This document shows positions 50,179-64,000 of a stretch of 64,000 bases of DNA, one piece after another (within the stretch, counting starts at the first letter, position 1; each line of letters opens with the position of its first letter). Both the position numbers and the translations under genes were made by a program. This DNA comes from a phage. A model generated the notes under the pieces. The model saw only the letters and a program-made list of their open reading frames with translations, searched no databases and was not told the DNA's origin. The stretch is taken from the sequence record PZ452609.1; one strand, given 5' to 3'.

Positions 50179-50499
50179 ATGAGCAAAGTTTATAACACTC
50201 GTAAATTACAGATTTTCTTACTGTGCCAGTTTATGGCTAGAGAACATAACTCCTACTATTGTGGTACAGGATTCATTAGTGATAATGATGGCTCATATCT
50301 CCCATTCAAAGAGGCTGTAAAACTCTTCAATGAAGAGAAAAGCTCTGAGAAAGATATTGAAAAGGTTAAATTAACCTATAGTAAGAAAGATAAGAAGATT
50401 ATCTGCCTAGATAACTTTGTGAAAGTTACCAAAGAAACTAAAGAGTTAATGGAAGAAAGTGAAATTCCATTCACAAGAATCTTGAAAGTAGCTCAGTAA
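50179..50499 (+). CDS. hypothetical protein
   Basis: 106 aa. Confidence 0.35.
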   Translation: MSKVYNTRKLQIFLLCQFMAREHNSYYCGTGFISDNDGSYLPFKEAVKLFNEEKSSEKDIEKVKLTYSKKDKKIICLDNFVKVTKETKELMEESEIPFTRILKVAQ

Positions 50500-50550
50500 A
50501 CAGATACTATAAGGGGACTGTAAAGGTTCCCTTTTTATTTTGGAGGTAAA

Positions 50551-51066
50551 ATGTATCTGTCAAACCTGAAACGTTCGGTTGCAATGTCAGTTCTAAGACT
50601 CAGCTTTGATGAGCGTCAAGAGTTTATAGACTCCCACAAATATGACCCTTCAAATTCTAATCACATGGTTCTTTGGAATCGTGGTAACTTACGTGAAAGA
50701 GCACTTGTCCGTTATTACCCACACTACACAATAGATAACCTGTATGAATGGTGTGTTGTGAAGAACACCATTGCAACACTGAACAATCTTTGCAGGTATA
50801 CGGGTAAGCAAATATTTACATTAGGTCATCACAAACCTGTTACAAAAGGTGGTGAACATCACTGTGCAAACTGGTTTATCCAAACTAAAGCTGATAACCA
50901 GAAGCAAGGAGATAGCCTCCTAAGTATCCCTAAGATGACCTATGAAGAGCAAGAGAAATATATCAAAAATAATATGCCAGATGTGCTTGACAACAACTAT
51001 ACAGATTTGGCAATATCTCTCCTGTTGAAGTTCGAGACAGTTTATAGGGCAACTTATAATGACTAA
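50551..51066 (+). CDS. HNH endonuclease-like protein
   Basis: GHHKPVTKGGEHHCANWFIQTKADNQKQ resembles HNH/His-Me finger core. Confidence 0.4.
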   Translation: MYLSNLKRSVAMSVLRLSFDERQEFIDSHKYDPSNSNHMVLWNRGNLRERALVRYYPHYTIDNLYEWCVVKNTIATLNNLCRYTGKQIFTLGHHKPVTKGGEHHCANWFIQTKADNQKQGDSLLSIPKMTYEEQEKYIKNNMPDVLDNNYTDLAISLLLKFETVYRATYND

Positions 51067-51337
51067 AGAAAAGTGGGAGATTTTACCATTAGTCAGTGAA
51101 GGAGGTAATGGTTGTGAAATGTACATGATACGTGGTCATGTTCCAGAGCCAATTGCACTTGAGATGGTAAACAACTTTACAGATGGTTCTTACAAAGACT
51201 TAGGCGAACCAACTGTCAAGCAACAATGGGTTAAACCTGTACCAGACAGCACAGGTAACTGTAGTGTACTTTATCACGTTGTAGACCCTGCAAAATGCAA
51301 ATCTGCAATGGCAGTAACAAACGTAACTTTTGATTGA
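51059..51337 (+). CDS. hypothetical protein
   Basis: 92 aa. Confidence 0.35.
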   Translation: MTKEKWEILPLVSEGGNGCEMYMIRGHVPEPIALEMVNNFTDGSYKDLGEPTVKQQWVKPVPDSTGNCSVLYHVVDPAKCKSAMAVTNVTFD

Positions 51338-52230
51338 GAGAGAAAACTATGAAAACATCTATCCGTGTTACAGTTCATTCACCAACTAAAGGGACTCATG
51401 AAGAAGAGTTTAACATCGTCCAATTCCCTTCTGGTGAGATTGGTGGACACTTTTCGCCAGAGTTTGTTGATTTTACTGCTTATGCAGCATCATCCATCAA
51501 CAATGTGATTATGATTGTAAAAGGTTATGACAAGGACACATTGTTTGCTGTGGCACTTGCTAAAGAAGCAATTGATGATTTAATTCCTCATGATTATGCT
51601 TTAAAGACTGTCATCTTTTACTACTTACCAAATGCACGATATGACCGTCACATGTTTAAAGGTGACGCAGCAGCTTTAAAGGTTTTTGCTAAACAGATTA
51701 ATGCAATGGGATTTGGCGCAGTCTGTGCAGTTGACCCTCACAGCTATGTACCAGATAACCTGTTTAACTGCTTCCAGAGTATTCCTCAAAAGGAGATTGC
51801 AGTCCACTATGCAAATGACCCACTGGTTGATTACTTAGTAGCCCCAGATGCAGGTGCTGCTAAGAAGGTTGCAGAGACCGCTAAAGAGGTGGATAAACCA
51901 TATATCACAATGTCTAAGGTGCGTAACCTTAAGACTGGTGAAATTACTGGTATGCGAATCCTTGATGATGTTGATTTGACAGATAAAACCGTCATGATTC
52001 TGGATGATATCTGTGATGGTGGTCGAACCTTCATAGAAGCAGCTAAGCATCTCCGTGAAGCAGGTACAAAACGTGTGGAACTCTATGTAACACATGGTAT
52101 CTTCTCTAAAGATGTTGAAAACCTTCTTGACAATGGTATTGACCATATCTACACTACAAACTCTTTAGGGGAAGCTAAAGACCGTGGCTTAACACATTAT
52201 GGTCAAGTTACTGTAGCAAACCTTGATTGA
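51334..52230 (+). CDS. ribose-phosphate pyrophosphokinase-like enzyme (PRPP synthetase family; possible ADP-ribose pyrophosphokinase)
   Basis: PRTase-type binding motif VMILDDICDGGRTF; 298 aa; immediately upstream of Nampt-like gene. Confidence 0.7.
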   Translation: MREKTMKTSIRVTVHSPTKGTHEEEFNIVQFPSGEIGGHFSPEFVDFTAYAASSINNVIMIVKGYDKDTLFAVALAKEAIDDLIPHDYALKTVIFYYLPNARYDRHMFKGDAAALKVFAKQINAMGFGAVCAVDPHSYVPDNLFNCFQSIPQKEIAVHYANDPLVDYLVAPDAGAAKKVAETAKEVDKPYITMSKVRNLKTGEITGMRILDDVDLTDKTVMILDDICDGGRTFIEAAKHLREAGTKRVELYVTHGIFSKDVENLLDNGIDHIYTTNSLGEAKDRGLTHYGQVTVANLD

Positions 52231-52239
52231 AACTTTATA

Positions 52240-52260
52240 GGGGCTTAAAAGCCCCATTTT
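52240..52260 (+). terminator. stem-loop ggggc-ttaaaa-gcccc + ATTTT between the two NAD-module genes
   Basis: hairpin and T-run; member of recurring GGGGCTT..AAGCCCC family. Confidence 0.4.
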
Positions 52261-52275
52261 GAGAGAGATTAAAAG

Positions 52276-54057
52276 ATGACTAAATCACTTTATGCAGTAC
52301 CAGCAGGTTTAAATGCAGATGCTTACAAATCTGGTCATGTTTACCAGTATCCTAGTGCAACAGAATACTTGATGTTCAACCTGACACCACGTAGTGATAA
52401 ATGGTTTAACAGCCCTTTAGCAATTGACGGTGTAGTGGCTTTTGGTATTCAACGTTTTGTTAAAGATTACTTGATAGACCACTGGAATGCCACTTTCTTT
52501 GAACGTGATAAAAAAGAAGCCATTGATGAAATCTTAGAAGTCATGAATGGTGTTCTGGGTAAAGATGCTATCGGTCGAGAGCATTGGGAAGCACTTCACG
52601 ACTTAGGTTATCTACCAGTTGAAGTATACGCTGTAGAAGAAGGCACAGTTGTTCCAATGCGTGTCCCGATGATTGTCTTTCAGAACACTGTTTCAGGTTT
52701 TCATTGGGTAGCAGGTTATCTGGAAGATGCTTTCTCTGCTGAAATTTGGAAGGCTTGCACCATTGCAACTATTGCATTGCATTACAAACGCATCTGTAAG
52801 AAGTGGGCTGACCTTACTTGTGACAATGACTTACATTTACCTTATCAGTGCCATGATTTTGCTATGCGTGGTATGTCCGGCTTTACTGATGACGCATTTA
52901 ACGCTGTAGGTCACTTAACCAGCTTTAAAGGGACTGATAGCTTCCCTGCTGTATACACGGCTAAACGAATCTATGGACAGTCCTACCCAATCTCTGATAT
53001 TGGTAGCTCTGTACCAGCCACTGAGCACTCTGTAATGTGTGCAAACATTGCTTGGGAAGGTGGTAATGAGTTGATTGAAGAAGAAAGACGCTTTAAAGGT
53101 GAGTTACAAACCTTCCGTCGTTTCTTAACAGAAACTTACCCAACAGGTATTGCAAGTATTGTTTCAGATACTTATAACTTCTGGAGAACTGTGTCAGAAA
53201 TCTTACCAGCACTTCGTAAAGAAATTATGGAACGTGATGGCAAACTGGTAATTCGCCCTGACTCTGGAGACCCTGTACATATTGTCACAGGTTATAAAGC
53301 AATCCACTTAGAATGTGCTAAGAAGGCTTATTACGAGCACCTAAGCAAGCTGGAAGTCAGTGACACAATGTTGAATGCTGTTCTTAACATGAAGCTTGAA
53401 AACATCAACTATGGTATTGCTGGATGGCTACTGTCAGAAGGCTACGAAATGGTTGTTGACAGAGAAGACTTTGAAGTTGCTGATACAGTGATGTTGAAGA
53501 ACGCTTATATGGTTGGTTCTGCAAACGTTGTAACACGCCCTGTAGCAGAGATTGATGGAGCTATTAAGACCTTGTATAACATCTTTGGAGGAACTATCAA
53601 CTCTAAAGGTTTTAAGGTACTGGATGAGCACATTGGACTTATCTATGGCGACTCTATCACGTTGGAACGTGCAAACGAAATCCTGAAGCGTCTGTATGAA
53701 ATGGGGTTTGCAAGCTCTAACGTGGTGTTTGGTGTAGGCTCTTACACTTACCAGTACATGACTCGTGACACCTTTGCATTTGCTGTCAAAGCAACTCTTG
53801 CAAGCATTGGTGGCAAAGAGATTATGCTTGCAAAAGACCCTAAAACAGATAGTGGTGTTAAGAAATCTGCCTTTGGTGGTGTAGCACCTATGTGGGATGG
53901 TGAGAATTTGAAAGCTGTAGATGGCTATGGATTCCAGAGCTTTGCAGATGCACTTGAACATCCAGCTTGTGCTTTACGTTTAGTCTTTAGCGACTCTGAG
54001 CAGTACGGTTACACAACTCTTGGTGATATTCGAAATAATATTGACAAGCAGCTTTAA
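52276..54057 (+). CDS. nadV: nicotinamide phosphoribosyltransferase-like enzyme (Nampt/NadV family)
   Basis: 593 aa; family assignment by overall similarity of pattern (e.g. VSDTYNFW) and by pairing with Prs-like gene. Confidence 0.6.
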   Translation: MTKSLYAVPAGLNADAYKSGHVYQYPSATEYLMFNLTPRSDKWFNSPLAIDGVVAFGIQRFVKDYLIDHWNATFFERDKKEAIDEILEVMNGVLGKDAIGREHWEALHDLGYLPVEVYAVEEGTVVPMRVPMIVFQNTVSGFHWVAGYLEDAFSAEIWKACTIATIALHYKRICKKWADLTCDNDLHLPYQCHDFAMRGMSGFTDDAFNAVGHLTSFKGTDSFPAVYTAKRIYGQSYPISDIGSSVPATEHSVMCANIAWEGGNELIEEERRFKGELQTFRRFLTETYPTGIASIVSDTYNFWRTVSEILPALRKEIMERDGKLVIRPDSGDPVHIVTGYKAIHLECAKKAYYEHLSKLEVSDTMLNAVLNMKLENINYGIAGWLLSEGYEMVVDREDFEVADTVMLKNAYMVGSANVVTRPVAEIDGAIKTLYNIFGGTINSKGFKVLDEHIGLIYGDSITLERANEILKRLYEMGFASSNVVFGVGSYTYQYMTRDTFAFAVKATLASIGGKEIMLAKDPKTDSGVKKSAFGGVAPMWDGENLKAVDGYGFQSFADALEHPACALRLVFSDSEQYGYTTLGDIRNNIDKQL

Positions 54058-54069
54058 AAGTATATGATA

Positions 54070-54094
54070 AGAGGCTCCTACGGGAGCCTTTTTA
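54070..54094 (+). terminator. intrinsic terminator (aggctcc-UACG-ggagcct + TTTT)
   Basis: perfect stem and T-run. Confidence 0.65.
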
Positions 54095-54110
54095 ATTTCT
54101 GGAGAATGCT

Positions 54111-54455
54111 ATGGACAACCTTTCCATATGGTTTAACAATAAACCTGTACAACCGAAATACTTACAAGTTGCCTATACAGACATCCTTAAAGTTCTCGGT
54201 AAAGAAAAGTTTGAAAAGTTTTGTGAAGGTATCTACAATCACCACTGCCAATTTGCTACAAAAGAAGGTATGTTTGTCATAGAACAGTTCTTTGGCAGAG
54301 ACCCAGATGACTACGAAGAGATTAGCTTTGTAATGAAATACATGATAGAGTATATTGAAAATCGTGGATTCGAAGTTAATCCTGAATTTTATGAACATGA
54401 GGGTGTACCTTTAGCAAAAGGTTTCGATGGCATACTCATTAACTGGACTTGGTGA
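54111..54455 (+). CDS. hypothetical protein
   Basis: 114 aa. Confidence 0.35.
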   Translation: MDNLSIWFNNKPVQPKYLQVAYTDILKVLGKEKFEKFCEGIYNHHCQFATKEGMFVIEQFFGRDPDDYEEISFVMKYMIEYIENRGFEVNPEFYEHEGVPLAKGFDGILINWTW

Positions 54456-54796
54456 AAACTATGAAAATCAAAGAGATGAACATCAACATTATCTTAGAAG
54501 AACGTTGGGAGAACATTAAGAAACCTGAAGATGGTAAAAAGTTCCTTAACAAAATTTTAGTAGCAGCTAAAGAAGAACTGACTGGCAAGATTGCAGCAGC
54601 AATCACAATAAAAGTTTGTGTAAAAGGTCTTCCAGACCATCACCAATTTGCACTTGACGAGTTTAAAAAAAGCTTCTACAATCCAAACAAACAGATGCTT
54701 GAAAGTAACTTTGCAGTATCTACAAGTATCGTCCATGACAGAAGCTTTATCCTTTACAAAAACATGAGGGGTGAGTCATGCAAGCATATTGGGTAG
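54449..54796 (+). CDS. hypothetical protein
   Basis: 115 aa. Confidence 0.35.
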   Translation: MVKTMKIKEMNINIILEERWENIKKPEDGKKFLNKILVAAKEELTGKIAAAITIKVCVKGLPDHHQFALDEFKKSFYNPNKQMLESNFAVSTSIVHDRSFILYKNMRGESCKHIG

Positions 54797-54954
54797 AAAT
54801 TTTACTGTCACTTGGTAGTGTAGCAGTCCTTGTTTATCTTCTTTGTAAGTACTTTGCAGAACACAAGAAGTGTGACTACTGTAACGGAGAAGGGTATACA
54901 AGAGCAGGTTGTTGCCCTATGTGTGGTGGTTCTGGTAAAATGTTTAATAAGTAA
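54778..54954 (+). CDS. small membrane-anchored zinc-finger protein (58 aa, not in ORF track)
   Basis: N-terminal hydrophobic helix, C-terminal CDYCNGEG...CPMCGGSG (two CxxCxGxG-like units); RBS gaggggtgag. Confidence 0.3.
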   Translation: MQAYWVEILLSLGSVAVLVYLLCKYFAEHKKCDYCNGEGYTRAGCCPMCGGSGKMFNK

Positions 54955-54982
54955 TTTAACAGTAAACTAAGAGGAAAGTATT

Positions 54983-57349
54983 ATGCGCATGGTAAATGAC
55001 CACGCAGAAGTGATTAAGAGTTCAACTTCTTTAGAGACGTCTCAAGCACAGATTACAATGACACCTGAGATGTTCAGCCTTTTGAGTTCTGGTGTATATA
55101 CCTTTAAAGAAAGGGCAGTGATTCGTGAACTGTCATGTAACGCAGTAGATGCTCAGAAAGAAGCTGGAAAAGAGAACATTCCGTTCCATGTGCATTTACC
55201 TACTCGTTTTGAGCCTTACTTTGAAGTTCGTGATTTTGGAACTGGATTGACTCATGATAAAGTTATGAGTTTGTACCTAAACTACGGGGCTTCTACGAAG
55301 AATGACTCTAATGACTACATTGGTGCAATGGGTATCGGCTCAAAATCCCCATTTGCAATTGCTCAGTCATTCACAGTATCTAGCTATGTTGATGGTGTTG
55401 TTAATAAGTACTCTGTTTATCTTGAGAATGGTATCCCTCAAGTAACTAAGCTGACCACTAACCCAACAAAAGAACCTAATGGTTTAGCTGTACGTGTGGC
55501 AGTTGCTGACCACCGTATCTCAAAGTTCTTTGAAGAAGCTGGAAATGTGTACTCATACTTCACTGTAAAACCAGAAAGTAATATTGAGTACGACGATGTA
55601 TTAGCAGATATGAACGTCATTGCCCGTGAAGAAGGTGTTTATGATGCCATGATTCATAAGCAAAGCTGGCGTTCTAGTGGTAACAGGACAGAGTTTAATG
55701 TGGTGATGGGTAATATTGCCTATCCAGTGAACATGGAAGCATTACTTGGTGATGATTTCTTCAAAGTCTTGCCAGAGTTTTTCCGTAGGAGCGTAGACCT
55801 TGTAAACATCTACATGCCTATTGGTTCAGTTGCTATAGCAGCTTCTCGTGAAGCATTGCAGATGAATGATACGACAAAAAATGTTATCATCGAGGCTACC
55901 AAAAAGATAACTGAAGCAATTACAAAGGATGTTATCAAGAAAGTTAATAGCCAACCTACACTCATGGATGCTGCACAGGCTTATGCAGAGCTACGTTTGA
56001 ACTCACGAGAGATGTTTAATGCTGTGTGTCCAAAGCTAGAGTGGGGAGGCATTAAGCTTGATTCTCTGGAAGAAGAATTGTTAAACATTCGTCGTGGAAT
56101 TATCTACGCAGAAGACGGCTCAGTCATTTATGAACGTGACGGTAAAGGCAATATTAAGGTTGATAGGAACGGGAACAATATCCCTAAAGTAGATTATCTT
56201 TATGACCCAGTTGCTTATGTCAAGTTCAACTCTTTAGAGAGTAAGATTCGTGCAACAGCACTTTCCTACACTCAAGAGGCAAGCATGTTCAATATCTTTG
56301 GTGCAATGCGTAAAAGCCAAATTGAACAGTTTTTGTTCGTGATTAATGACCGTCGCAATAAAAACGGTACTGAGAAGACTGTAGGACGCAATCAAATTTT
56401 GCGTGGTGCATGTCGAGACTACGCCAGTGAGTCAAATCTGTTTCACAGATACAATGGTATTGTCTTTGTATTCTCGACTGAAAAAGAGTTAGATGATTTA
56501 ATCAATCTACACAAACTTGATAAAAGCTTGTTAAAGATTGTGAAGATGTCTGATAAGGAACACCACTATCAGCGTAAAGAAGCTGTAAGGGGTGTTGTAA
56601 AACTCTGGAAAGCTGTTCCAGCAGAAACTAAAGCTTCATACAAAGAGGTGTCAGAAGACTTAGACACAATTGAAGAGCCTCAGCTTTATATTAAGGCAGT
56701 AGGTGACACAGTTGATGGTAGATGTTTTTGCTCATCTCCAGAGGATGTAGCTAAGTCAGTTGCTAATGTTACAGGCAAGACAGTCTATGTTTTCCGAAAA
56801 GCAAATTGGAAAAAGATACCAGAAGACTGGATTGAAGTAGATGAGAAGCTCTTGAACGACAGCTTAACTGATGTTCATTGGATTAACCATAACAGGTATA
56901 TGACACGCATCTACATGGATGGTGTCCTCGACCTTACAAGCAGTTGGATTATTGCCAGAAACTTTACGTTCAATAACAGGAAGATTTCTCGCGGGTATTG
57001 TTATTCAAGGGATACTATTAAGACAATCTTCTTAGAAGGGAATGAAGATGCTGTTGAGGCAATGTTCGGTAAGATTCAGTATGTGGCTGCACCGTTTGCA
57101 TACACTTACACTATCAGTGTTCTTCAGGATTTGAAGTCATGCCTTGATAATGACACAAAACTGTACAAAAAGATTAAAAAAGCAGGTGACCGCATGGTTA
57201 TCAAGCTGACAAACTATCTTTCAAAAAGAAAACAAGAAAACTTCTTGCTTTCACACTTAGATTGGAATAAAGTATCACCTATCGAAGTGAGTAAGTTTTT
57301 AGGCTTTAATGTGAAATGTGTTCCAGAAGGTACAACAATTTACGATTAA
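54983..57349 (+). CDS. rIIA: rIIA-like protein with N-terminal GHKL-type ATPase domain
   Basis: GHKL N-box IRELSCNAVDA, G1 DFGTGLT, G2 GAMGIGSKSPF; 788 aa, followed by rIIB-size gene. Confidence 0.45.
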   Translation: MRMVNDHAEVIKSSTSLETSQAQITMTPEMFSLLSSGVYTFKERAVIRELSCNAVDAQKEAGKENIPFHVHLPTRFEPYFEVRDFGTGLTHDKVMSLYLNYGASTKNDSNDYIGAMGIGSKSPFAIAQSFTVSSYVDGVVNKYSVYLENGIPQVTKLTTNPTKEPNGLAVRVAVADHRISKFFEEAGNVYSYFTVKPESNIEYDDVLADMNVIAREEGVYDAMIHKQSWRSSGNRTEFNVVMGNIAYPVNMEALLGDDFFKVLPEFFRRSVDLVNIYMPIGSVAIAASREALQMNDTTKNVIIEATKKITEAITKDVIKKVNSQPTLMDAAQAYAELRLNSREMFNAVCPKLEWGGIKLDSLEEELLNIRRGIIYAEDGSVIYERDGKGNIKVDRNGNNIPKVDYLYDPVAYVKFNSLESKIRATALSYTQEASMFNIFGAMRKSQIEQFLFVINDRRNKNGTEKTVGRNQILRGACRDYASESNLFHRYNGIVFVFSTEKELDDLINLHKLDKSLLKIVKMSDKEHHYQRKEAVRGVVKLWKAVPAETKASYKEVSEDLDTIEEPQLYIKAVGDTVDGRCFCSSPEDVAKSVANVTGKTVYVFRKANWKKIPEDWIEVDEKLLNDSLTDVHWINHNRYMTRIYMDGVLDLTSSWIIARNFTFNNRKISRGYCYSRDTIKTIFLEGNEDAVEAMFGKIQYVAAPFAYTYTISVLQDLKSCLDNDTKLYKKIKKAGDRMVIKLTNYLSKRKQENFLLSHLDWNKVSPIEVSKFLGFNVKCVPEGTTIYD

Positions 57350-57354
57350 AGTGT

Positions 57355-57384
57355 TTGACAAGGGGCTTTGAAGCCCCTTAGAAT
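57355..57384 (+). promoter_or_regulatory. promoter TTGACA-N18-TAGAAT with hairpin in spacer
   Basis: -35 57355-60, spacer is aggggct-ttga-agcccct palindrome, -10 tagaat 57379-84. Confidence 0.45.
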
Positions 57385-57428
57385 AGCCTCACAAATTGAT
57401 TGATTAACTAACAAGAGAGAGTAATAAG

Positions 57429-58538
57429 ATGACTACTAAAACTAAAGCACAGATTGACGCAGAAATTTACAAACTGGTTAAAGAAGGTAAGCTGACTAAA
57501 ACAGCTATTGCACAGAAGTTCAATACTTCAACCCGTTCAGTTGGTCGTGCTGTAGAGCGTCATGAAGCAACCTTAAAAGGCAAGAAGAAGGCAACTTCTA
57601 CACCAGCTACGAAGACTTTGAAACAATTTGCTAAGACTTTTAAAAAGAAAGCTGGCAAACCAGTTGAAAAGGTCGTTAAAGACACTGTACAGAAAGCTCC
57701 AGTAAATAAACTGCACGAAGCTATGCAGAAAGATGACAAGATTGAGTACATGATTACTGGTGATTCTGTAATTATGACTTATGGTTCAGAATCTGAAATT
57801 GTTGAGTCTACTCATCCGAACTATCAAGAGATTGTAGTTCATGTTGTGAAAGGTCAGTTCAAGAAAGCATTTGAACTGATGAACATTCGTAAGTCTATCG
57901 AAAACTTCACTCAGGGTGCTATCACAATCAAAGGCGACAAGCTATTCTACGGTGCTGTTGAGATGCGTTCTACTCTGGTTGACCGTATTCTTCACATGAT
58001 GAAAACTGGCGATAAAGGTTTTGAACGACTTGTAATGTTCTTCGAAAAACTGATGGAAAACCCATCTAAAGATTCTGTAGAACAACTTTGGGGATTTGTA
58101 TCTCACCTTGATGTTGAAATTGATGAAGAAGGCTACATCATTGGTTGGAAGAAAGTCTCTACTCGTGAAGGCAAGCTGGTTGACTCTCACACCTACAAAG
58201 TGCCTAATGATTTGGGTAACATTGTAGAAATGCCACGTTGGATGGTTGATAATAACCGTAACGTAACTTGCTCTCAAGGTCTTCATGTTGGTGCTTGGGA
58301 TTATGTTCGTTGCTTCTCAGGTGATACAATCCTGAAGGTTCGCGTACATCCACGAGATGTTGTATCTGTTCCAACTGATTACAATGATATGAAGATGCGT
58401 TCCTCTCGTTATGAAGTTGCAGCAATCGTTGATAATCAACGTAAAGTGCTGGAAGCATGGGACGGTAAGACTGAAGCTTTGCATGTCATCGTTGGCACTG
58501 CTGGTGAACTCATCTCTCAACGTAAACGTGAAATCTAA
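57429..58538 (+). CDS. rIIB-like protein (putative), N-terminal HTH-like region and basic linker
   Basis: 369 aa directly downstream of rIIA-like gene; assignment by synteny only. Confidence 0.35.
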   Translation: MTTKTKAQIDAEIYKLVKEGKLTKTAIAQKFNTSTRSVGRAVERHEATLKGKKKATSTPATKTLKQFAKTFKKKAGKPVEKVVKDTVQKAPVNKLHEAMQKDDKIEYMITGDSVIMTYGSESEIVESTHPNYQEIVVHVVKGQFKKAFELMNIRKSIENFTQGAITIKGDKLFYGAVEMRSTLVDRILHMMKTGDKGFERLVMFFEKLMENPSKDSVEQLWGFVSHLDVEIDEEGYIIGWKKVSTREGKLVDSHTYKVPNDLGNIVEMPRWMVDNNRNVTCSQGLHVGAWDYVRCFSGDTILKVRVHPRDVVSVPTDYNDMKMRSSRYEVAAIVDNQRKVLEAWDGKTEALHVIVGTAGELISQRKREI

Positions 58539-58544
58539 TAAGTA

Positions 58545-58568
58545 ATTTCTTAAAAGGCTGCTTCGGCG
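58545..58568 (+). terminator. intrinsic terminator (aggcugc-UUCG-gcggccu + T-run)
   Basis: stem with one G-U pair, UUCG loop, TTTTTT. Confidence 0.6.
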
Positions 58569-58579
58569 GCCTTTTTTAT

Positions 58580-58607
58580 TTGTATTTTGTGCAGAGTGCT
58601 GTATAAT
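58580..58607 (+). promoter_or_regulatory. putative promoter TTGTAT-N16-TATAAT
   Basis: perfect -10 tataat 58602-07. Confidence 0.35.
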
Positions 58608-58638
58608 TGATGTCACGATAAACTAAACAGGAGAACCA

Positions 58639-59187
58639 ATGAAGAAATTGATTCTAGGTTTGTGCTTAATGTTTACAGCACACTTATCTTATGCAGTTGA
58701 CTGCCCAGAACTATCAATTAGCCAAAAAGTGAACATGTTAAAAGCTTACCAGTATGGTGAGAATAACATGGGTAAAGGTTGGGGTATCACTCTAGCAGCT
58801 ATAGCCTTACAAGAGTCAGAGTTAGGTCTGAAGGTAGAAAATAAAAAGACCCATGACTATGGTATCTTCCAGAATCACTTGAAGACTGTTGTAAAGCGTA
58901 ACAAAATTAGTCCTAATGTTGCTAAAAAGAAACTCTTAAAAGATTTTGACTATGCCGCAAAAGAAACACATAAAGAGCTTGAGTTTTGGACGAAGGTGCA
59001 TGGTCACCCAAAGTCAAAGAAGACTTTACAAAAAGTTTTAGCATCATATAATGCTGGGTATTCGTACAGAATCCCTAAAGCTAAGAAATATTCTCAAGAT
59101 GTCTATAACAACATGAAAGTTATTGCTCAATGTGAATTTGCAACAAACATTTCTAAGGTAAACCATGAAAAAATTAAAAAAGTCTGA
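58639..59187 (+). CDS. secreted lytic transglycosylase-like protein (putative endolysin)
   Basis: signal peptide MKKLILGLCLMFTAHLSYA; SLT-like core AIALQESELG...DYGIFQ. Confidence 0.5.
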   Translation: MKKLILGLCLMFTAHLSYAVDCPELSISQKVNMLKAYQYGENNMGKGWGITLAAIALQESELGLKVENKKTHDYGIFQNHLKTVVKRNKISPNVAKKKLLKDFDYAAKETHKELEFWTKVHGHPKSKKTLQKVLASYNAGYSYRIPKAKKYSQDVYNNMKVIAQCEFATNISKVNHEKIKKV

Positions 59188-59860
59188 TGAAGTCCTGTGC
59201 CACGCTTATGACTTACATCCTCATGAGTTAGGTCTTGATTCCTGTGTATGGACTCCAGAACAGTGTAGGGATTTTGAAGACACTGCAAGAGAAGTTGTAT
59301 GTTCACTGGAAGAGTTCCACACATCAGAACCAATTGTGAACGTTGTGGACAAAGAGACTGGACAAACTATAGGTGTAAGGCGCGATAGTTTAGTCATAGT
59401 CAATAAAGACCTTGTAGAAAAAGGTAACCTCATCTTAGCAGATATTGATGGTGTTCTTACAAATTTTAATCACGAAGATTGCTCAACGGAATTGACTGAT
59501 GGTTCATTCTCACAGTACACTAATCTTCTTGATTCTGTAAGAGCAAAGCCAACATATGTTTTCAACATTATTGATGCAATTGCAAATCATGCAGCAGTTG
59601 GACTCTTGACAGCAAGAGGTGAATCTCAGAGAATACCTACTGAGATGTTTTTAAGGCACAATATAGAGCATGATTACTTGCTTTTTATGCGTGGTTTTGG
59701 AACTAACTCTATAAGTGCAGAAAGTTTGAAAGTGAGGATGATTCAGTCTTGCATTCTTCCTTACTTTAATATAGTATGCTTTATAGAAGATACAGAGAAT
59801 AATGTTCAGAAGGTAAACAGAATCCTTCCACACATTAAAACTATGTTAGTTAAACATTGA
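59165..59860 (+). CDS. HAD-superfamily phosphatase-like protein
   Basis: motif I ADIDGVLT, motif II LLTARG, later FIEDTENN. Confidence 0.45.
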   Translation: MKKLKKSDEVLCHAYDLHPHELGLDSCVWTPEQCRDFEDTAREVVCSLEEFHTSEPIVNVVDKETGQTIGVRRDSLVIVNKDLVEKGNLILADIDGVLTNFNHEDCSTELTDGSFSQYTNLLDSVRAKPTYVFNIIDAIANHAAVGLLTARGESQRIPTEMFLRHNIEHDYLLFMRGFGTNSISAESLKVRMIQSCILPYFNIVCFIEDTENNVQKVNRILPHIKTMLVKH

Positions 59861-60336
59861 GAGAAGAACTTATGAACAATATTATTACGGTAGCACTGGA
59901 CGATACGGCAAACAAATCTGAAGTAGTTCGTAAAATGATTCAAGGTAACTTTGAAGGTAAAATTTTCCGTGCTGTTAATGTAAAAGCTGATGGTAGCATT
60001 CGTGAATATCGTGCATTGTTGAACGTTAAGAAGCACGTAAAAGGTGTTGGTTCAACGACTGCACACAAAGAAAACCTGATGACTATCTATGATATGGGTA
60101 AGGCTTCAGAGTTAGGTGCTGAAGGTATCGTTAAAGAAGGTGCTCCGTATCGCTCTTTCAATCTGGAAACTACTCTTATGCTTTCCTTTACAAGTGGTTC
60201 CAAAACAATCACTTATCTCTTTACTGATGCTGCAACGGTATCTGCTATTAAGGATAGCACTGTCAAAGCTGGCGTAGTTGCTGCTGCAAAAGCTTCTTCG
60301 ATGGCTGCAAATATCCTTGCTAAAGTCCTCGGTTAA
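59857..60336 (+). CDS. hypothetical protein
   Basis: 159 aa. Confidence 0.35.
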   Translation: MREELMNNIITVALDDTANKSEVVRKMIQGNFEGKIFRAVNVKADGSIREYRALLNVKKHVKGVGSTTAHKENLMTIYDMGKASELGAEGIVKEGAPYRSFNLETTLMLSFTSGSKTITYLFTDAATVSAIKDSTVKAGVVAAAKASSMAANILAKVLG

Positions 60337-60347
60337 GGTTAAGATAC

Positions 60348-60370
60348 AGGCTCCTTCGGGAGCCTTTTTC
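60348..60370 (+). terminator. intrinsic terminator (aggctcc-UUCG-ggagcct + TTTT)
   Basis: perfect stem, UUCG loop, T-run. Confidence 0.65.
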
Positions 60371-60388
60371 ATTTCAGGAGATTGTTAA

Positions 60389-60736
60389 ATGACATTTAAA
60401 GAGTTCTGTCAAGCTACTTTCATAATTGTTTTCTTAGTTGGGGCAGGTGTCTGGGGAGGATACTCTTACAGAGACTACCAAGTTGCTGAAACTGAGCTAA
60501 ACAACCAGAAGCTAATAAGTGTTGCTAAAGATGCTTATCAGGAAGGATTAGCTACACTGAGCACCAATTACAAAAATGATTTGAAAGACGTGCTTGCTAA
60601 GAATAAGCACACAAAAGAGGTACTGACATATGAAAAGACTAAGCCAGAGTTTTATAATGTTTGTGTTACTGATAACTATGTCAGGGTGTTCAACGAACAA
60701 AGTGAGCAATACATTCAAAAACTCCCAAGTAAGTGA
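60389..60736 (+). CDS. i-spanin-like protein (Rz-like, putative)
   Basis: N-terminal TM anchor FIIVFLVGAGVWGG then helical periplasmic domain; 3' end overlaps a lipoprotein ORF in another frame. Confidence 0.4.
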   Translation: MTFKEFCQATFIIVFLVGAGVWGGYSYRDYQVAETELNNQKLISVAKDAYQEGLATLSTNYKNDLKDVLAKNKHTKEVLTYEKTKPEFYNVCVTDNYVRVFNEQSEQYIQKLPSK

Positions 60737-60896
60737 AAGTGATAAGTACACTCAGGAAGATGTAAGATATGCTGTCAAAGGTAACACTGGTGCAGACTTA
60801 TCAGAAGCCCTTGAGTTTTATCGTGACGGGTACTATCAGTGTACTATGAAAGCTAACAACTTGATTGATATGATTTTATTAGGGAATAAGCAGTAA
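60630..60896 (+). CDS. o-spanin-like lipoprotein (Rz1-like, putative), embedded/overlapping
   Basis: MKRLSQSFIMFVLLITMSGC lipobox-like signal; begins inside the preceding gene in +1 frame. Confidence 0.35.
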   Translation: MKRLSQSFIMFVLLITMSGCSTNKVSNTFKNSQVSESDKYTQEDVRYAVKGNTGADLSEALEFYRDGYYQCTMKANNLIDMILLGNKQ

Positions 60897-61168
60897 TGAC
60901 ACAAAGTAATGATGAAACTTTCTACACAGAAGGTTACTTACTTCTACCGAGACCGAAAGATACTTACATGAGGATTGATTTCTTACCTACGATTATGGAT
61001 AATGTAATGTGTCACATCTTTATGCAAGGTATCACAGCACAGCTTAAGCATGTTGGTAAAGAGTGCAAAATAAAGGTTGACACTCATCCAGAAATCAAAG
61101 AGAATCACTACACATGGTTCCTACCAGACTCTAAAGAAATCTTAGCAGTTCTTAAAACGAGGAAATGA
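60896..61168 (+). CDS. hypothetical protein
   Basis: 90 aa. Confidence 0.3.
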   Translation: MTQSNDETFYTEGYLLLPRPKDTYMRIDFLPTIMDNVMCHIFMQGITAQLKHVGKECKIKVDTHPEIKENHYTWFLPDSKEILAVLKTRK

Positions 61169-61479
61169 TTATGCAATTCCAGCCAACAAATCGTGGATTT
61201 TCTTATGCAGAATTTAAAGATGCTAAAGGGGAAATTTGTACTTTACAAGAGAGTTCATCATACGAACCATGTATCTGGTTAGGTGCTAAAGAGGTCTCTG
61301 TTCAGTACCTAGATAATGGCTGGAAAACACTTGATATCCCAGCATTAGTTGGTAAAGATTTTATAGGTAATCAAAGAATGAAGCTCAATCAAGAACAGGT
61401 AAAAGAGTTGTTGCCGTACCTTCAATACTTTGCTGAAAATGGTGAATTACCAACAGAGGAACTTACAAATGCAGATTAA
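61165..61479 (+). CDS. hypothetical protein
   Basis: 104 aa. Confidence 0.3.
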   Translation: MIMQFQPTNRGFSYAEFKDAKGEICTLQESSSYEPCIWLGAKEVSVQYLDNGWKTLDIPALVGKDFIGNQRMKLNQEQVKELLPYLQYFAENGELPTEELTNAD

Positions 61480-61795
61480 TGGAAGAGACTTTGTAGCCGT
61501 TTACTACGAGAAAGGTAAAGAAGTTGGCGTAGCGCAAGTATCTTATGGCAATGGTGGGTGGCTATATGGAACAATCGCAGTAGTTGGAACGAGAAGTGAT
61601 ACAAAAACTTTTAAAGATTGTGTTGACCTTCTTGAAGAATCCATTCAGAATCATTGGTGTCTGATATGGATGACTGACAACGAAGTGATAGAACGCTTCA
61701 AAAAGATTGATATCAACATTGATAGTATTGAGCATGTTGATTTATATGAGCTAACTGAGAAGGTAAACTATGAGAGTAATTCTAGCCAGAGATAA
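61469..61795 (+). CDS. hypothetical protein
   Basis: start ATG 61469 with RBS gagga. Confidence 0.3.
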   Translation: MQINGRDFVAVYYEKGKEVGVAQVSYGNGGWLYGTIAVVGTRSDTKTFKDCVDLLEESIQNHWCLIWMTDNEVIERFKKIDINIDSIEHVDLYELTEKVNYESNSSQR

Positions 61796-61997
61796 AAAGA
61801 CACGGAAACTCATCCGGTCAGCAGTATTCATTGGAAGAAATGAAGTCATCCCGTTTACAGCAAACGATGTGATAGCCTACAGGAAAAACTTAGTGTTTAG
61901 TGATTGCTTGCGTGGCTTCATCTCCCAACCGTTGGAAGATTTTAAAAGCCGTTGTGGTAAAGGTATCATCATTCAAGAGGCAATTATCAATGGCTGA
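61770..61997 (+). CDS. hypothetical protein
   Basis: 75 aa. Confidence 0.3.
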   Translation: MRVILARDKKTRKLIRSAVFIGRNEVIPFTANDVIAYRKNLVFSDCLRGFISQPLEDFKSRCGKGIIIQEAIING

Positions 61998-62190
61998 CTT
62001 CTGCAAAGACTGTTCTATCGAAATGTTCGGACGTGATACAGGTGACTTAAAAGGTCTTATCACTGAAGATGACTTTAAAGCTGGTTATGCAATGCCAGTA
62101 ATCTGTGAAGGTTGTGGGTGCATCTGGGTAGACCACGAAGGACAACGTGTAAAACCTTCAGAAGACAAAGAATCTTGGGAGAGATGTTAA
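61990..62190 (+). CDS. small zinc-binding protein
   Basis: CKDC ... CEGCGC Cys clusters; RBS agagg. Confidence 0.3.
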   Translation: MADFCKDCSIEMFGRDTGDLKGLITEDDFKAGYAMPVICEGCGCIWVDHEGQRVKPSEDKESWERC

Positions 62191-62976
62191 ATGGGTATTG
62201 TAAAAATAATTAATGGTGATATCTTTGCCGCATTTGATAAAGGTAAGTTTGACATCATCGGTCACGGTTGCAACTGTATGAATTTAATGGGTGCAGGTAT
62301 CGCTGACAAGATTTCTAAACTTTACCCAAAAGCATATGAGACCGATACAGAAGTTTATCTGTATGCAGGTGGTATAGGACACAAACCCTGTGAAAATTTA
62401 CTGGGTAATTTCTCTGTAGCACGTTTAAAACAAGGTCGTATAGCTAACCTTTACACTCAGCTTAAGACTGGTAAAGATGCCCGATACAGTGCTTTAGAGT
62501 CATCTTTGAAACAGCTTAACAGATACTGTGAAGTTAATCAGTTGAAGAAGGTTGGTTTACCTATGATTGGTGCAGGTATCGGTGGACTTGACCCTCAAGC
62601 CGTCACAGTTATCATTAATCAGGTGATGAAGAGTGTAGATGTTTATCTGTATGTCTACGAAGGAGAGATGTACCACAAGTTACGCTCAGGTTGGAATAAC
62701 TACTGTGAACCAGAATACTTTGCAGGTGTAGTAACGTTCAAAGATGATACAGTTACCCTCTTCAGACGAAGAAAAGGTAAGATACATCAAAGTAACCCTC
62801 CGGTTGAGAAGATGTCTCTAAGTAACGCTCTAGTTACCCACCTGTCGAAGAGCAATCACAGGATAGCCGTAACATTTGGCAGTGATGCAGATACATATAT
62901 TTATGCAAGAACTGATGAGGATATCGAGACGGTCTTCTCTTCACCAGAAGTTACCTTCTTAGACGCAAAGAACTAA
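62191..62976 (+). CDS. macro domain-like protein (ADP-ribose binding/processing, putative)
   Basis: N-terminal INGDIFAAF..FDIIGHGCNCMNLMGAGIADKI and later GLPMIGAGIGG resemble macro-domain Gly-rich motifs. Confidence 0.4.
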   Translation: MGIVKIINGDIFAAFDKGKFDIIGHGCNCMNLMGAGIADKISKLYPKAYETDTEVYLYAGGIGHKPCENLLGNFSVARLKQGRIANLYTQLKTGKDARYSALESSLKQLNRYCEVNQLKKVGLPMIGAGIGGLDPQAVTVIINQVMKSVDVYLYVYEGEMYHKLRSGWNNYCEPEYFAGVVTFKDDTVTLFRRRKGKIHQSNPPVEKMSLSNALVTHLSKSNHRIAVTFGSDADTYIYARTDEDIETVFSSPEVTFLDAKN

Positions 62977-63045
62977 GAAACTCTGTATAATATTCACAAT
63001 AGACTAAGCCTTCTTTATCTGGTAAATTTTTCAGGTAAGGAGGGC

Positions 63046-63230
63046 TTTTTCATTTCAGGATTGTGCAGGTAGAGTTCTGTAGAGAAATCTGTAGAGAGAA
63101 TTTTGAACTCCAAAGAGAAAATTCATTTTCAAACTGTGCAGGTAATCTCCAAAGAGCTTTTTCATTTTCAAAACGTGCAGACCCCGCTCAGGTCGGGCAA
63201 GAAAAATCATTTTAGAATCGTGCAGGTAGG
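63046..63230. repeat. four direct repeats of a ~22-nt motif TTCATTT(T)CAnAnnGTGCAGGTA
   Basis: copies at about 63049, 63122, 63162, 63207 with unequal spacing (73, 40, 45 nt). Confidence 0.7.
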
Positions 63231-63404
63231 TTTTTATAGAGAGCCAGACCAACCCCTCTCCCCCTCTTACTCCACCTCTCCCCAAAAGTCAAGAGAAAAA
63301 TTTGTAGCGGGTTGAAAAATAATTCTTGATTTGTGTTCTGTTTTGTGGTAGTCGTGCGCGCCCGTTCATTTCCCAACCTTACAAAAAATATTTAATAAAA
63401 ACCG

Positions 63405-63433
63405 TTGACACGCCAAACAAGTTTACGTACTAT
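63405..63433 (+). promoter_or_regulatory. near-consensus sigma70 promoter TTGACA-N17-TACTAT with A/T-rich UP-like tract
   Basis: -35 63405-10, -10 63428-33, upstream acaaaaaatatttaataaaaa. Confidence 0.55.
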
Positions 63434-63482
63434 TTGCATCAGACGGGCAAGCAAGCCCACTTCCTAAACTGGAGAATCGAAA

Positions 63483-63689
63483 ATGCTTTATAGTCGTGAA
63501 TTGATGGTTACAACTAACGTTAACACAAAGGTAAAACGTTTTTACATGCAAGTATGTGGCGCATGGTCTAGAATATCAGAGGCTGACTATTGCAACTATG
63601 TAGAAACAGCTATAAACTCTAATTGCTACCTTACAAGAAATACAAGAAAGTACATAAGACAGACAGCAGTTTATTACTACGATGCCTAA
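63483..63689 (+). CDS. hypothetical protein
   Basis: 68 aa, RBS ggaga. Confidence 0.35.
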   Translation: MLYSRELMVTTNVNTKVKRFYMQVCGAWSRISEADYCNYVETAINSNCYLTRNTRKYIRQTAVYYYDA

Positions 63690-63780
63690 TAAAGTACTTT
63701 ACAAGGGGCTTAAAAGCTGATATCTTAAGCCCCAGATAAAGAGCTTTACCAAATCAACCCTTAAACTAGGAGATTCAAAA

Positions 63781-64000
63781 ATGGCATATCGTGCACCTAA
63801 ATTCATCAACAAAGACAACTTTCGCAACGCACTGGAGAAGTCACTTGATGAGAATTTTAAAGGTAACGTTATTGTTGTTCACTCGTTTAATTTTAAGTAT
63901 GATATCAATGGGAATAAAATTAACCATTACACGGCGACAATGCTAGATGGTACTCTTTCAAGTGAAAAAGCCATTTTACATGCACTTGCTGGACGTGGTA
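63781..64000 (+). CDS. hypothetical protein, 3'-partial at window edge
   Basis: ATG 63781 with RBS aggag, open to end of window. Confidence 0.35.
   Translation, partial: MAYRAPKFINKDNFRNALEKSLDENFKGNVIVVHSFNFKYDINGNKINHYTATMLDGTLSSEKAILHALAGRG

Follow-up and report, generated by a model that had tools for sequence, protein, structure and literature searches.

A Tk.4-type macro domain protein with a lineage-restricted C-terminal module in a Felix O1-type phage, a candidate factor against DarTG2

Two phage macrodomain proteins have been connected with the defence system DarTG2. The product of the bacteriophage T4 gene tk.4 was long called a phosphatase on account of its 'A1pp motif'. In a preprint of November 2025, tk.4 was the single significant match in a transposon-sequencing (HIDEN-SEQ) experiment on a DarTG2 host, and a clean tk.4 knockout sensitised T4 to DarTG2; the protein was named AdfM, for anti-DarT factor Macrodomain (10.1101/2025.11.20.689424). 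The second protein, PhiKZ gp104, is a DarG2-like macrodomain that strips DarT2-installed ADP-ribose from DNA in vitro and was also named AdfM (2026 Cell Reports, PMC13309987). Two phage macrodomains that are not orthologous have thus received the name in independent work, one with glutamine (T4 Tk.4, Gln-type) and one with lysine (PhiKZ gp104, Lys-type) at a key position, and proteins of either type are 23-24% identical to proteins of the other; this collision of nomenclature is worth flagging. Here a further phage gene of this class is described. It was found in a 64,000-nucleotide stretch of phage DNA (sequence record PZ452609.1, hereafter called the window) as a complete coding sequence of 261 amino acids with an ATG start (62191..62976, +), taken from a list of open reading frames (ORFs) and identical to ECTP1_00078 (AKE44958.1), a 'macro domain protein'.

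The N-terminal part of the window protein (residues 1-156; 62191..62658, +) is a macro domain with intact ADP-ribose-binding loops. The assignment of this α/β/α fold to the Tk.4/AdfM clade draws on Pfam, PHROG, AlphaFold2, Foldseek and similarity to Tk.4. The Pfam Macro model (PF01661) was matched with 32.3 bits against a gathering cutoff of 22 (E 1e-7; residues 25-141 on model positions 2-117 of 118), and the N-terminal half alone scored 34.2 bits. PHROG 335, labelled 'phosphatase', matched the whole protein at E 4e-113. Sequence matches in the PDB were to TARG1/OARD1, DarG macrodomains, coronavirus/nsP3 Mac1 and Poa1p. The full-length AlphaFold2 model, built from 29 homologs, had a mean predicted local distance difference test score (pLDDT) of 89.4 and a predicted template modelling score of 0.88. 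Foldseek comparison of this model gave template modelling (TM) scores of 0.85-0.87 for TARG1, 0.79-0.81 for the DarG macrodomains of T. aquaticus and M. tuberculosis and 0.76 for Poa1p, all at a probability of 1.00; there were 240 PDB matches at E<=0.001, and the best 50 were all macrodomains with the exception of one designed protein. An earlier note on this DNA, written from the letters alone, had described the 261-residue ORF as macro-domain-like and quoted the motifs GDIFAAF, FDIIGHGCNCMNLMGAGIADKI and GLPMIGAGIGG. All three are present, and the fold is confirmed by the Pfam score above cutoff, the PDB sequence matches, the model and the Foldseek probabilities.

Among the 29 homologs, the columns with full or at least 90% conservation fall in four motifs, namely HGCNC (residues 25-29), MGAGIA (33-38), NLYTQ (86-90; 62446..62460, +) and PxIGAGIGG (124-132; 62560..62586, +). 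The first two make up the loop-1 motif HGCNC-x3-MGAGIA (residues 25-38; 62263..62304, +), and the last, PMIGAGIGG in the window protein, is the loop-2 phosphate-binding motif. Alignments with DarG, TARG1 and Poa1p place the Gly-rich loops MGAGIA and PMIGAGIGG on the loops with which those proteins bind the diphosphate and the distal ribose of ADP-ribose.

Within this class the closest characterized relative is T4 Tk.4. BLASTP aligned residues 3-157 of the window protein with residues 2-152 of Tk.4 (the whole of that 155-residue protein) at 35% identity and E 3e-24, and the family profile scored Tk.4 at 154 bits versus 52-66 bits for TARG1, DarG and Poa1p. Relatives were detected by tblastn in 2,794 phage records, including T-even-type and other large myoviruses, in which the match falls on tk.4 or beside vs. 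As judged from these comparisons, the macro domain belongs to the Tk.4 clade (T4 AdfM, PHROG 335) of the TARG1/DarG/Poa1p class, and this clade is a sister of TARG1, DarG and Poa1p with an active-site signature of its own. The explicit placement of the protein in the Gln-type Tk.4 clade, and not in the Lys-type DarG2-like clade, is new here.

The active site was compared using MAFFT and hmmalign alignments. The reference sequences were checked, the M. tuberculosis DarG sequence against 5M3I and the Poa1p sequence against 6LFQ, both with 100% identity; the T. aquaticus DarG sequence came from the same PDB search output (the DarG reference entries being 5M3E and 5M3I, from T. aquaticus and M. 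tuberculosis), and the TARG1 region around K84 and D125 came from the PDB HMMER alignment. The reported active-site residues are N22 and K80 in DarG (T. aquaticus numbering) and K78 in PhiKZ AdfM (PMC13309987). Asn22 of DarG aligns with the invariant Asn28 of the window protein. In Poa1p, residues H23, S30 and F152 have been probed in mutant structures, an H23A structure among them; His23 aligns with the invariant His25, and S30 aligns with Leu32. The position of the catalytic lysine, K80 in DarG, K78 in PhiKZ AdfM and Lys84 in TARG1, is held by Gln90 in the window protein and by Gln84 in T4 Tk.4. This glutamine was invariant in all 29 family members. Asp125 of TARG1 aligns with Gly131, a position that is also glycine in DarG, and the Lys84-Asp125 dyad of TARG1 is absent from the window protein. 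Because the lysine position is an invariant glutamine throughout the Tk.4 clade, catalysis cannot use the DarG/TARG1 lysine, and the chemistry is therefore not simply transferable from DarG. The retained Asn28 and His25 may be regarded as candidate catalytic residues. MacroD-type and viral Mac1-type macrodomains hydrolyse their substrates without a lysine of the DarG/TARG1 type.

The remainder of the protein (residues 157-261; 62659..62973, +) was delimited by models and searches as an orphan C-terminal module of one helix, six β-strands and a terminal helix. The module had pLDDT values of 84-93 in the full-length model and a pLDDT of 78, with a core at 84-90, when modelled alone. The earlier note had spoken of an extension of about 110 residues of unknown fold, and this description stands, insofar as residues 157-261 are confidently modelled and match nothing known. 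Pfam searches with 16 homologs returned only scattered single matches at E 0.025 or weaker, a sequence-profile search of the PDB returned nothing better than E 0.08, no fold match was found in the PDB, and the sole match in BFVD was a protein of phage SUSP2 from the same family. When 1.84 billion representative proteins were searched with a profile of the module, 12 matches were obtained. The real ones were macro-fused homologs and their fragments, two matches of 114 and 54 residues being truncated pieces of the same gene. Among the matches outside the family, those scanned (a reverse-transcriptase polyprotein, a YDG/MBG adhesin, a Sortilin-type protein, a PQQ propeller and a tandem-repeat protein) were repeat or β-propeller artefacts; one more was a large protein. 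Neither a stand-alone counterpart near T4 tk.4 nor a paralog elsewhere in the window was found at E<0.8.

Both domains are found together in phages of Felixounavirus, Mooglevirus and the SUSP2 and Si3 types, as well as in metagenomic relatives, and such two-domain homologs extend down to 33% identity with conserved synteny. At 261 residues the window protein represents this Ounavirinae-type variant and not the stand-alone macro architecture of about 155 residues. The module was found only as a fusion to a Tk.4-type macro domain and only in the Ounavirinae-type phage group. Its sequence has changed far more quickly than that of the macro domain. The module was 47-52% identical to the Moogle and SUSP2 types, versus 76-81% for the macro domain, with 22% versus 53% for the Si3 type and 13-21% versus 38-47% for the most distant homologs, and only Pro174, Gly179 and Tyr236 were conserved in the module. 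Identification of the module as the DarT-binding domain of DarG was ruled out by PADLOC, NCBIfam and direct comparison of sequence and fold, and isoelectric points that ranged from 4.6 to 9.5 across homologs ruled out that it is consistently acidic, as a DNA mimic would be, or consistently basic, as a DNA-binding domain would be. No conserved polar residues suggest an enzyme, and a targeting or partner-binding module is therefore the most plausible assignment; the pattern fits a scaffold or partner-binding role more readily than enzymatic activity, DNA mimicry or general DNA binding. The characterization of this module as an orphan, fast-evolving domain found only in fusions is also new here.

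Taken together, the gene is read here as probably encoding an early-expressed ADP-ribosylglycohydrolase that would detoxify DarT2-modified phage DNA and that carries a lineage-specific accessory domain, a reading to which a probability of roughly 0.55 is given. In this mechanism host DarT2 toxins would attach ADP-ribose to thymidine in single-stranded phage DNA, and the macro domain would bind and remove the DarT2-installed ADP-ribose, allowing replication in hosts that carry DarTG2. The β-rich C-terminal module is predicted to pack on the macro domain as a lineage-specific, fast-evolving accessory domain, with DNA or the replisome, or the toxin, as candidate partners. Both the DNA-linked substrate and the counter-defence role are transferred from the genetics of T4 Tk.4 and from the relationship to DarG. 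A DarT-type role had been suggested in the earlier note, and it is now backed indirectly, by homology to Tk.4, the T4 knockout and DarG as the sole match in both PADLOC (positions 18-145 of 329, the macro half) and NCBIfam. A qualification concerns the active site of DarG, of which Asn22 is kept as Asn28 and Lys80 is replaced by Gln90.

Several points weigh against this reading. With Gln90 in place of the catalytic lysine, thymidine-ADP-ribose hydrolysis by the Tk.4 clade is presumptive. For T4 Tk.4 the evidence consists solely of genetics, reported in a preprint. The DarG model of NCBIfam (NF048014) was matched at 47.5 bits against an equivalog cutoff of 250 bits, over model positions 4-152 of 338, and identity with PhiKZ gp104, the AdfM of shown biochemical activity, was 23% over 128 aligned residues. 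Any function assigned to the C-terminal module is conjectural. A literature search on Felixounavirus in connection with DarTG or macro domains returned nothing usable, and no experimental data on any macro protein of this genus.

A more elaborate form of the DarT2 reading is rather doubtful. It would make the protein a counter-defence factor with two modes, a glutamine-based, lysine-independent chemistry shared by the whole clade and recognition of a host or phage partner by the new C-terminal fold, so that the layout of DarG, an enzyme plus a toxin-binding domain, would have been reached convergently from unrelated parts. The partner of the C-terminal module might then be DarT2 itself, as it is for the unrelated C-terminal domain of DarG. 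Single-stranded DNA or the replisome might serve instead, so that the eraser would accumulate at replication forks.

The substrate could also differ. An eraser of other ADP-ribosylated targets, such as RNA or protein altered by further ADP-ribosyltransferase defences of the host (for example mRNA modified by a CmdTAC-type system), nucleic-acid ends or the phage's own marks, is an unlikely alternative that draws on the structural comparison, in which the closest solved structure is TARG1, a broad eraser of protein- and DNA-linked ADP-ribose; removal of ADP-ribose from DNA by TARG1 is stated in PMC11102865. The family profile scored TARG1, DarG and Poa1p about equally, and thus the sequence does not fix the substrate, and more defences that ADP-ribosylate RNA or DNA are anticipated in the AdfN paper. 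The nearest functionally tested relative, T4 Tk.4, nevertheless has a DarTG2-specific phenotype, and the annotation of the phage record names no ADP-ribosyltransferase, although most genes there are labelled 'hypothetical' and were not individually scanned.

It is distinctly unlikely that the protein is a small-molecule enzyme of the Poa1p type, an ADP-ribose-1''-phosphate phosphatase or O-acetyl-ADP-ribose deacetylase serving the metabolism of nucleotides or nicotinamide adenine dinucleotide (NAD) and not defence evasion. Loop 1 is nearly the same as HSCNCNGSWGGGIA of Poa1p, including the histidine of the H23A mutant structure, but S30 of Poa1p is replaced by Leu32 and the Poa1p profile score of 53 bits was no better than those of DarG and TARG1. 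Public labels such as 'phosphatase', 'Poa1p_like' and 'O-acetyl-ADP-ribose deacetylase' point the same way, but 'phosphatase' was inherited from a domain name and not from any test. The gene also stands at the end of a block with genes for nucleotides and NAD precursors, a context on which the earlier note had drawn in linking the protein to an NAD module. This link was not supported. The NAD genes lie about 8 kb away, past rIIA/rIIB-like genes, the tk-vs neighbourhood of T4 tk.4 is without NAD genes, and Pfam labelled no NAD-related family in the 8 kb upstream of two distant two-domain homologs.

Least probable is a non-catalytic reader or sponge that would bind ADP-ribosylated DNA, a toxin or a signal (including the Thoeris-type signals raised in the earlier note) with the C-terminal module as effector or anchor, which would suit the clade-wide Lys-to-Gln replacement, the intact binding loops and the accessory domain but is opposed by the invariance of Asn28 and His25, as expected of a conserved active site, by the protection that T4 Tk.4 affords without any C-terminal module, and by the many macrodomains that are active without the lysine. 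Nothing was found that points to Thoeris or to degradation of cyclic ADP-ribose signals. No macrodomain is known to bind or cleave cyclic ADP-ribose isomers, and the known anti-Thoeris proteins are sponges unrelated to macrodomains.

The signals around the gene are those of an expressed phage gene. The TAA stop (62188-62190) of an upstream ORF abuts the ATG of the macro gene, as read from the sequence, and a Shine-Dalgarno-like GGGAGAG (62177..62183, +), also read from the sequence, lies 7 nt 5' of the ATG. The start codon is right, since the N-terminus MGIVKIINGD aligns with MIVKYIKGD at the start of T4 Tk.4. Downstream, the co-directional gene block ends in a terminator-like hairpin (63006..63047, +), whose stem of 17 pairs precedes a T-run. 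Translational coupling, the Shine-Dalgarno-like element, the terminator and conservation together support the reality of the gene, which is the last of a long co-directional replication and metabolism block and is probably expressed early. No credible Rfam match to a structured RNA was found in or around it.

Positions 50191-64000 of the window were 100% identical to KP869100, Escherichia coli O157 typing phage 1 (Ounavirinae, Felixounavirus), whose recorded host is E. coli O157:H7; a seeming insertion or deletion of about 630 bp relative to KP869100 was not real and arose from an intergenic element that is repeated. The gene is annotated there as 'macro domain protein' (ECTP1_00078), and in RefSeq and related phages as 'phosphatase', 'putative phosphatase', 'macro domain-containing protein', 'Poa1p_like' or 'O-acetyl-ADP-ribose deacetylase'. 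About 200 phage records carry it at an identity of at least 90%. The gene is thus already recognised and correctly annotated at the domain level in GenBank/RefSeq, and it is a member of a large PHROG.

The block that precedes the macro gene contains, in order, a helicase, nrdAB, nrdD, prs with a phosphoribosyltransferase, an rIIA/rIIB-like pair, a HAD/PNK-like gene and several small ORFs; the rIIA/rIIB-like naming of the two large genes rests on synteny. By annotation, prs (ribose-phosphate pyrophosphokinase) lies at about 51349-52230 (L001 1159-2040) and a 593-residue 'putative nicotinate phosphoribosyltransferase' at about 52276-54057 (L001 2086-3867). This pair, the NAD module of the earlier note, precedes the macro gene by about 8 kb, with the rIIA/rIIB-like genes in between. 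Two metagenomic relatives keep the order of a large (rIIA-sized) gene, rIIB, a HAD-like gene and, further downstream, the macro gene. Directly upstream of the macro gene is a zinc-ribbon-like ORF of 66 residues with CxxC...CxxCxC spacing (PHROG 2210, function unknown; 61990-62190, +). A conserved partner gene at this position was rejected, the PHROG 2210 ORF not being kept in distant homologs; of these, L004 has a different 63-residue protein with two CxxC motifs (PHROG 4446) directly upstream, and L003 is without it and has no family there. On the 3' side the neighbour, past the terminator and a 500-bp spacer, is a 68-residue ORF of PHROG 5293.

Two other genes of the block were noted. A 231-residue protein (59165-59860, +) matched PHROG 3970, 'polynucleotide kinase', at E 2e-134, and its syntenic homologs had weak HAD_PNKP matches in Pfam; it may supply the phosphatase part of an enzyme that repairs RNA/DNA ends, encoded in the same block as the macro gene. 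A 182-residue protein of PHROG 600 (function unknown; 58639-59187, +) has a signal-peptide-like N-terminus (MKKLILGLCLMFTAHLSYA), and the syntenic gene of L004 had a weak Pfam match to SLT (lytic transglycosylase). Such a gene is unusual inside a replication and metabolism block.

Beyond the hairpin, the 500-bp spacer holds a repeat array that is a feature separate from the gene. The 19-nt sequence TCATTT-N7-GTGCAG occurs there in four exact direct copies, at 63050, 63123, 63162 and 63207 (63050-63225), against a chance expectation of 0.66 matches in the whole window, which bears out the repeat-rich intergenic region mentioned in the earlier note. In a longer register the repeats lengthen to 34-36 nt (to 63242), and a single copy with one mismatch lies at 58576. 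Such an arrangement may serve to bind a protein, as iterons or operators do. A C-rich, pyrimidine-rich tract (ccaacccctctccccctcttactccacctctcccc) was seen at 63250-63285, between the repeat array and a promoter-like TTGACA-17-TACTAT at 63405-63433. An intergenic element of about 98 nt (63686-63783) has a second copy, 92% identical, some 660 bp later in the phage genome (L001 14347-14441), between successive small genes. It resembles a promoter/terminator cassette that is repeated so as to set the members of a series of small ORFs apart, and it accounts for the seeming insertion or deletion relative to KP869100.

The present analysis is a refinement rather than a discovery, insofar as the databases already listed the gene product as a macro-domain protein and a function for the T4 homolog was recently reported. 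If the DarT2 reading is true, Felix O1-type phages, which are widely used in typing, biocontrol and therapy of Salmonella and E. coli, carry a built-in answer to DarTG2, and the macro gene would help to explain and predict host range, DarTG2 occurring in pathogenic E. coli (DarTG is placed there in PMC7003065). The clade-wide Lys-to-Gln change and the lineage-restricted C-terminal domain without detectable relatives are the entry points to mechanism.

Compared with the known systems, the best structural matches, TARG1/OARD1 (4J5R/4J5S) and Poa1p (6LFQ/6LFR), are both cellular enzymes with a different biology. Loop 1 of Poa1p, HSCNCNGSWGGGIA, is nearly the same as the H-x-C-N-C-x4-G-x-G-I-A of the window protein, whereas an insert of about 22 residues in Poa1p is absent from the window protein and S30 of Poa1p is not conserved. 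DarG2 shares the fold (TM about 0.8), the active-site Asn and the Gly-rich loops. It differs in its 23-24% identity, in having Lys80 at the position of Gln90, and in its helical DarT-binding C-terminal domain, a mimic of single-stranded DNA (7YK3_B), of which the window protein has no counterpart by sequence or fold; moreover, no darT gene adjoins the macro gene, whose neighbours are the PHROG 2210 and PHROG 5293 ORFs. PhiKZ gp104 provides the precedent of a single phage gene for a macrodomain with counter-defence activity, in that case shown biochemically (PMC13309987), but it belongs to the other, DarG2-like clade, keeps Lys78, undergoes import into the phage nucleus and lacks a C-terminal module. 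The differences from T4 Tk.4 are that Tk.4 is a bare macro domain of about 155 residues, to which the window protein adds a C-terminal module of about 105 residues and a longer insert at residues 53-71, and that its gene lies in the tk-vs neighbourhood whereas the window gene lies downstream of rIIA/rIIB-like genes. The two proteins have in common the motifs HGCNC, MGxG[IV]A, NLYTQ and PxIGAGIG, including the glutamine at the position of the DarG lysine, and both are encoded by non-structural genes of virulent enterobacterial myoviruses.

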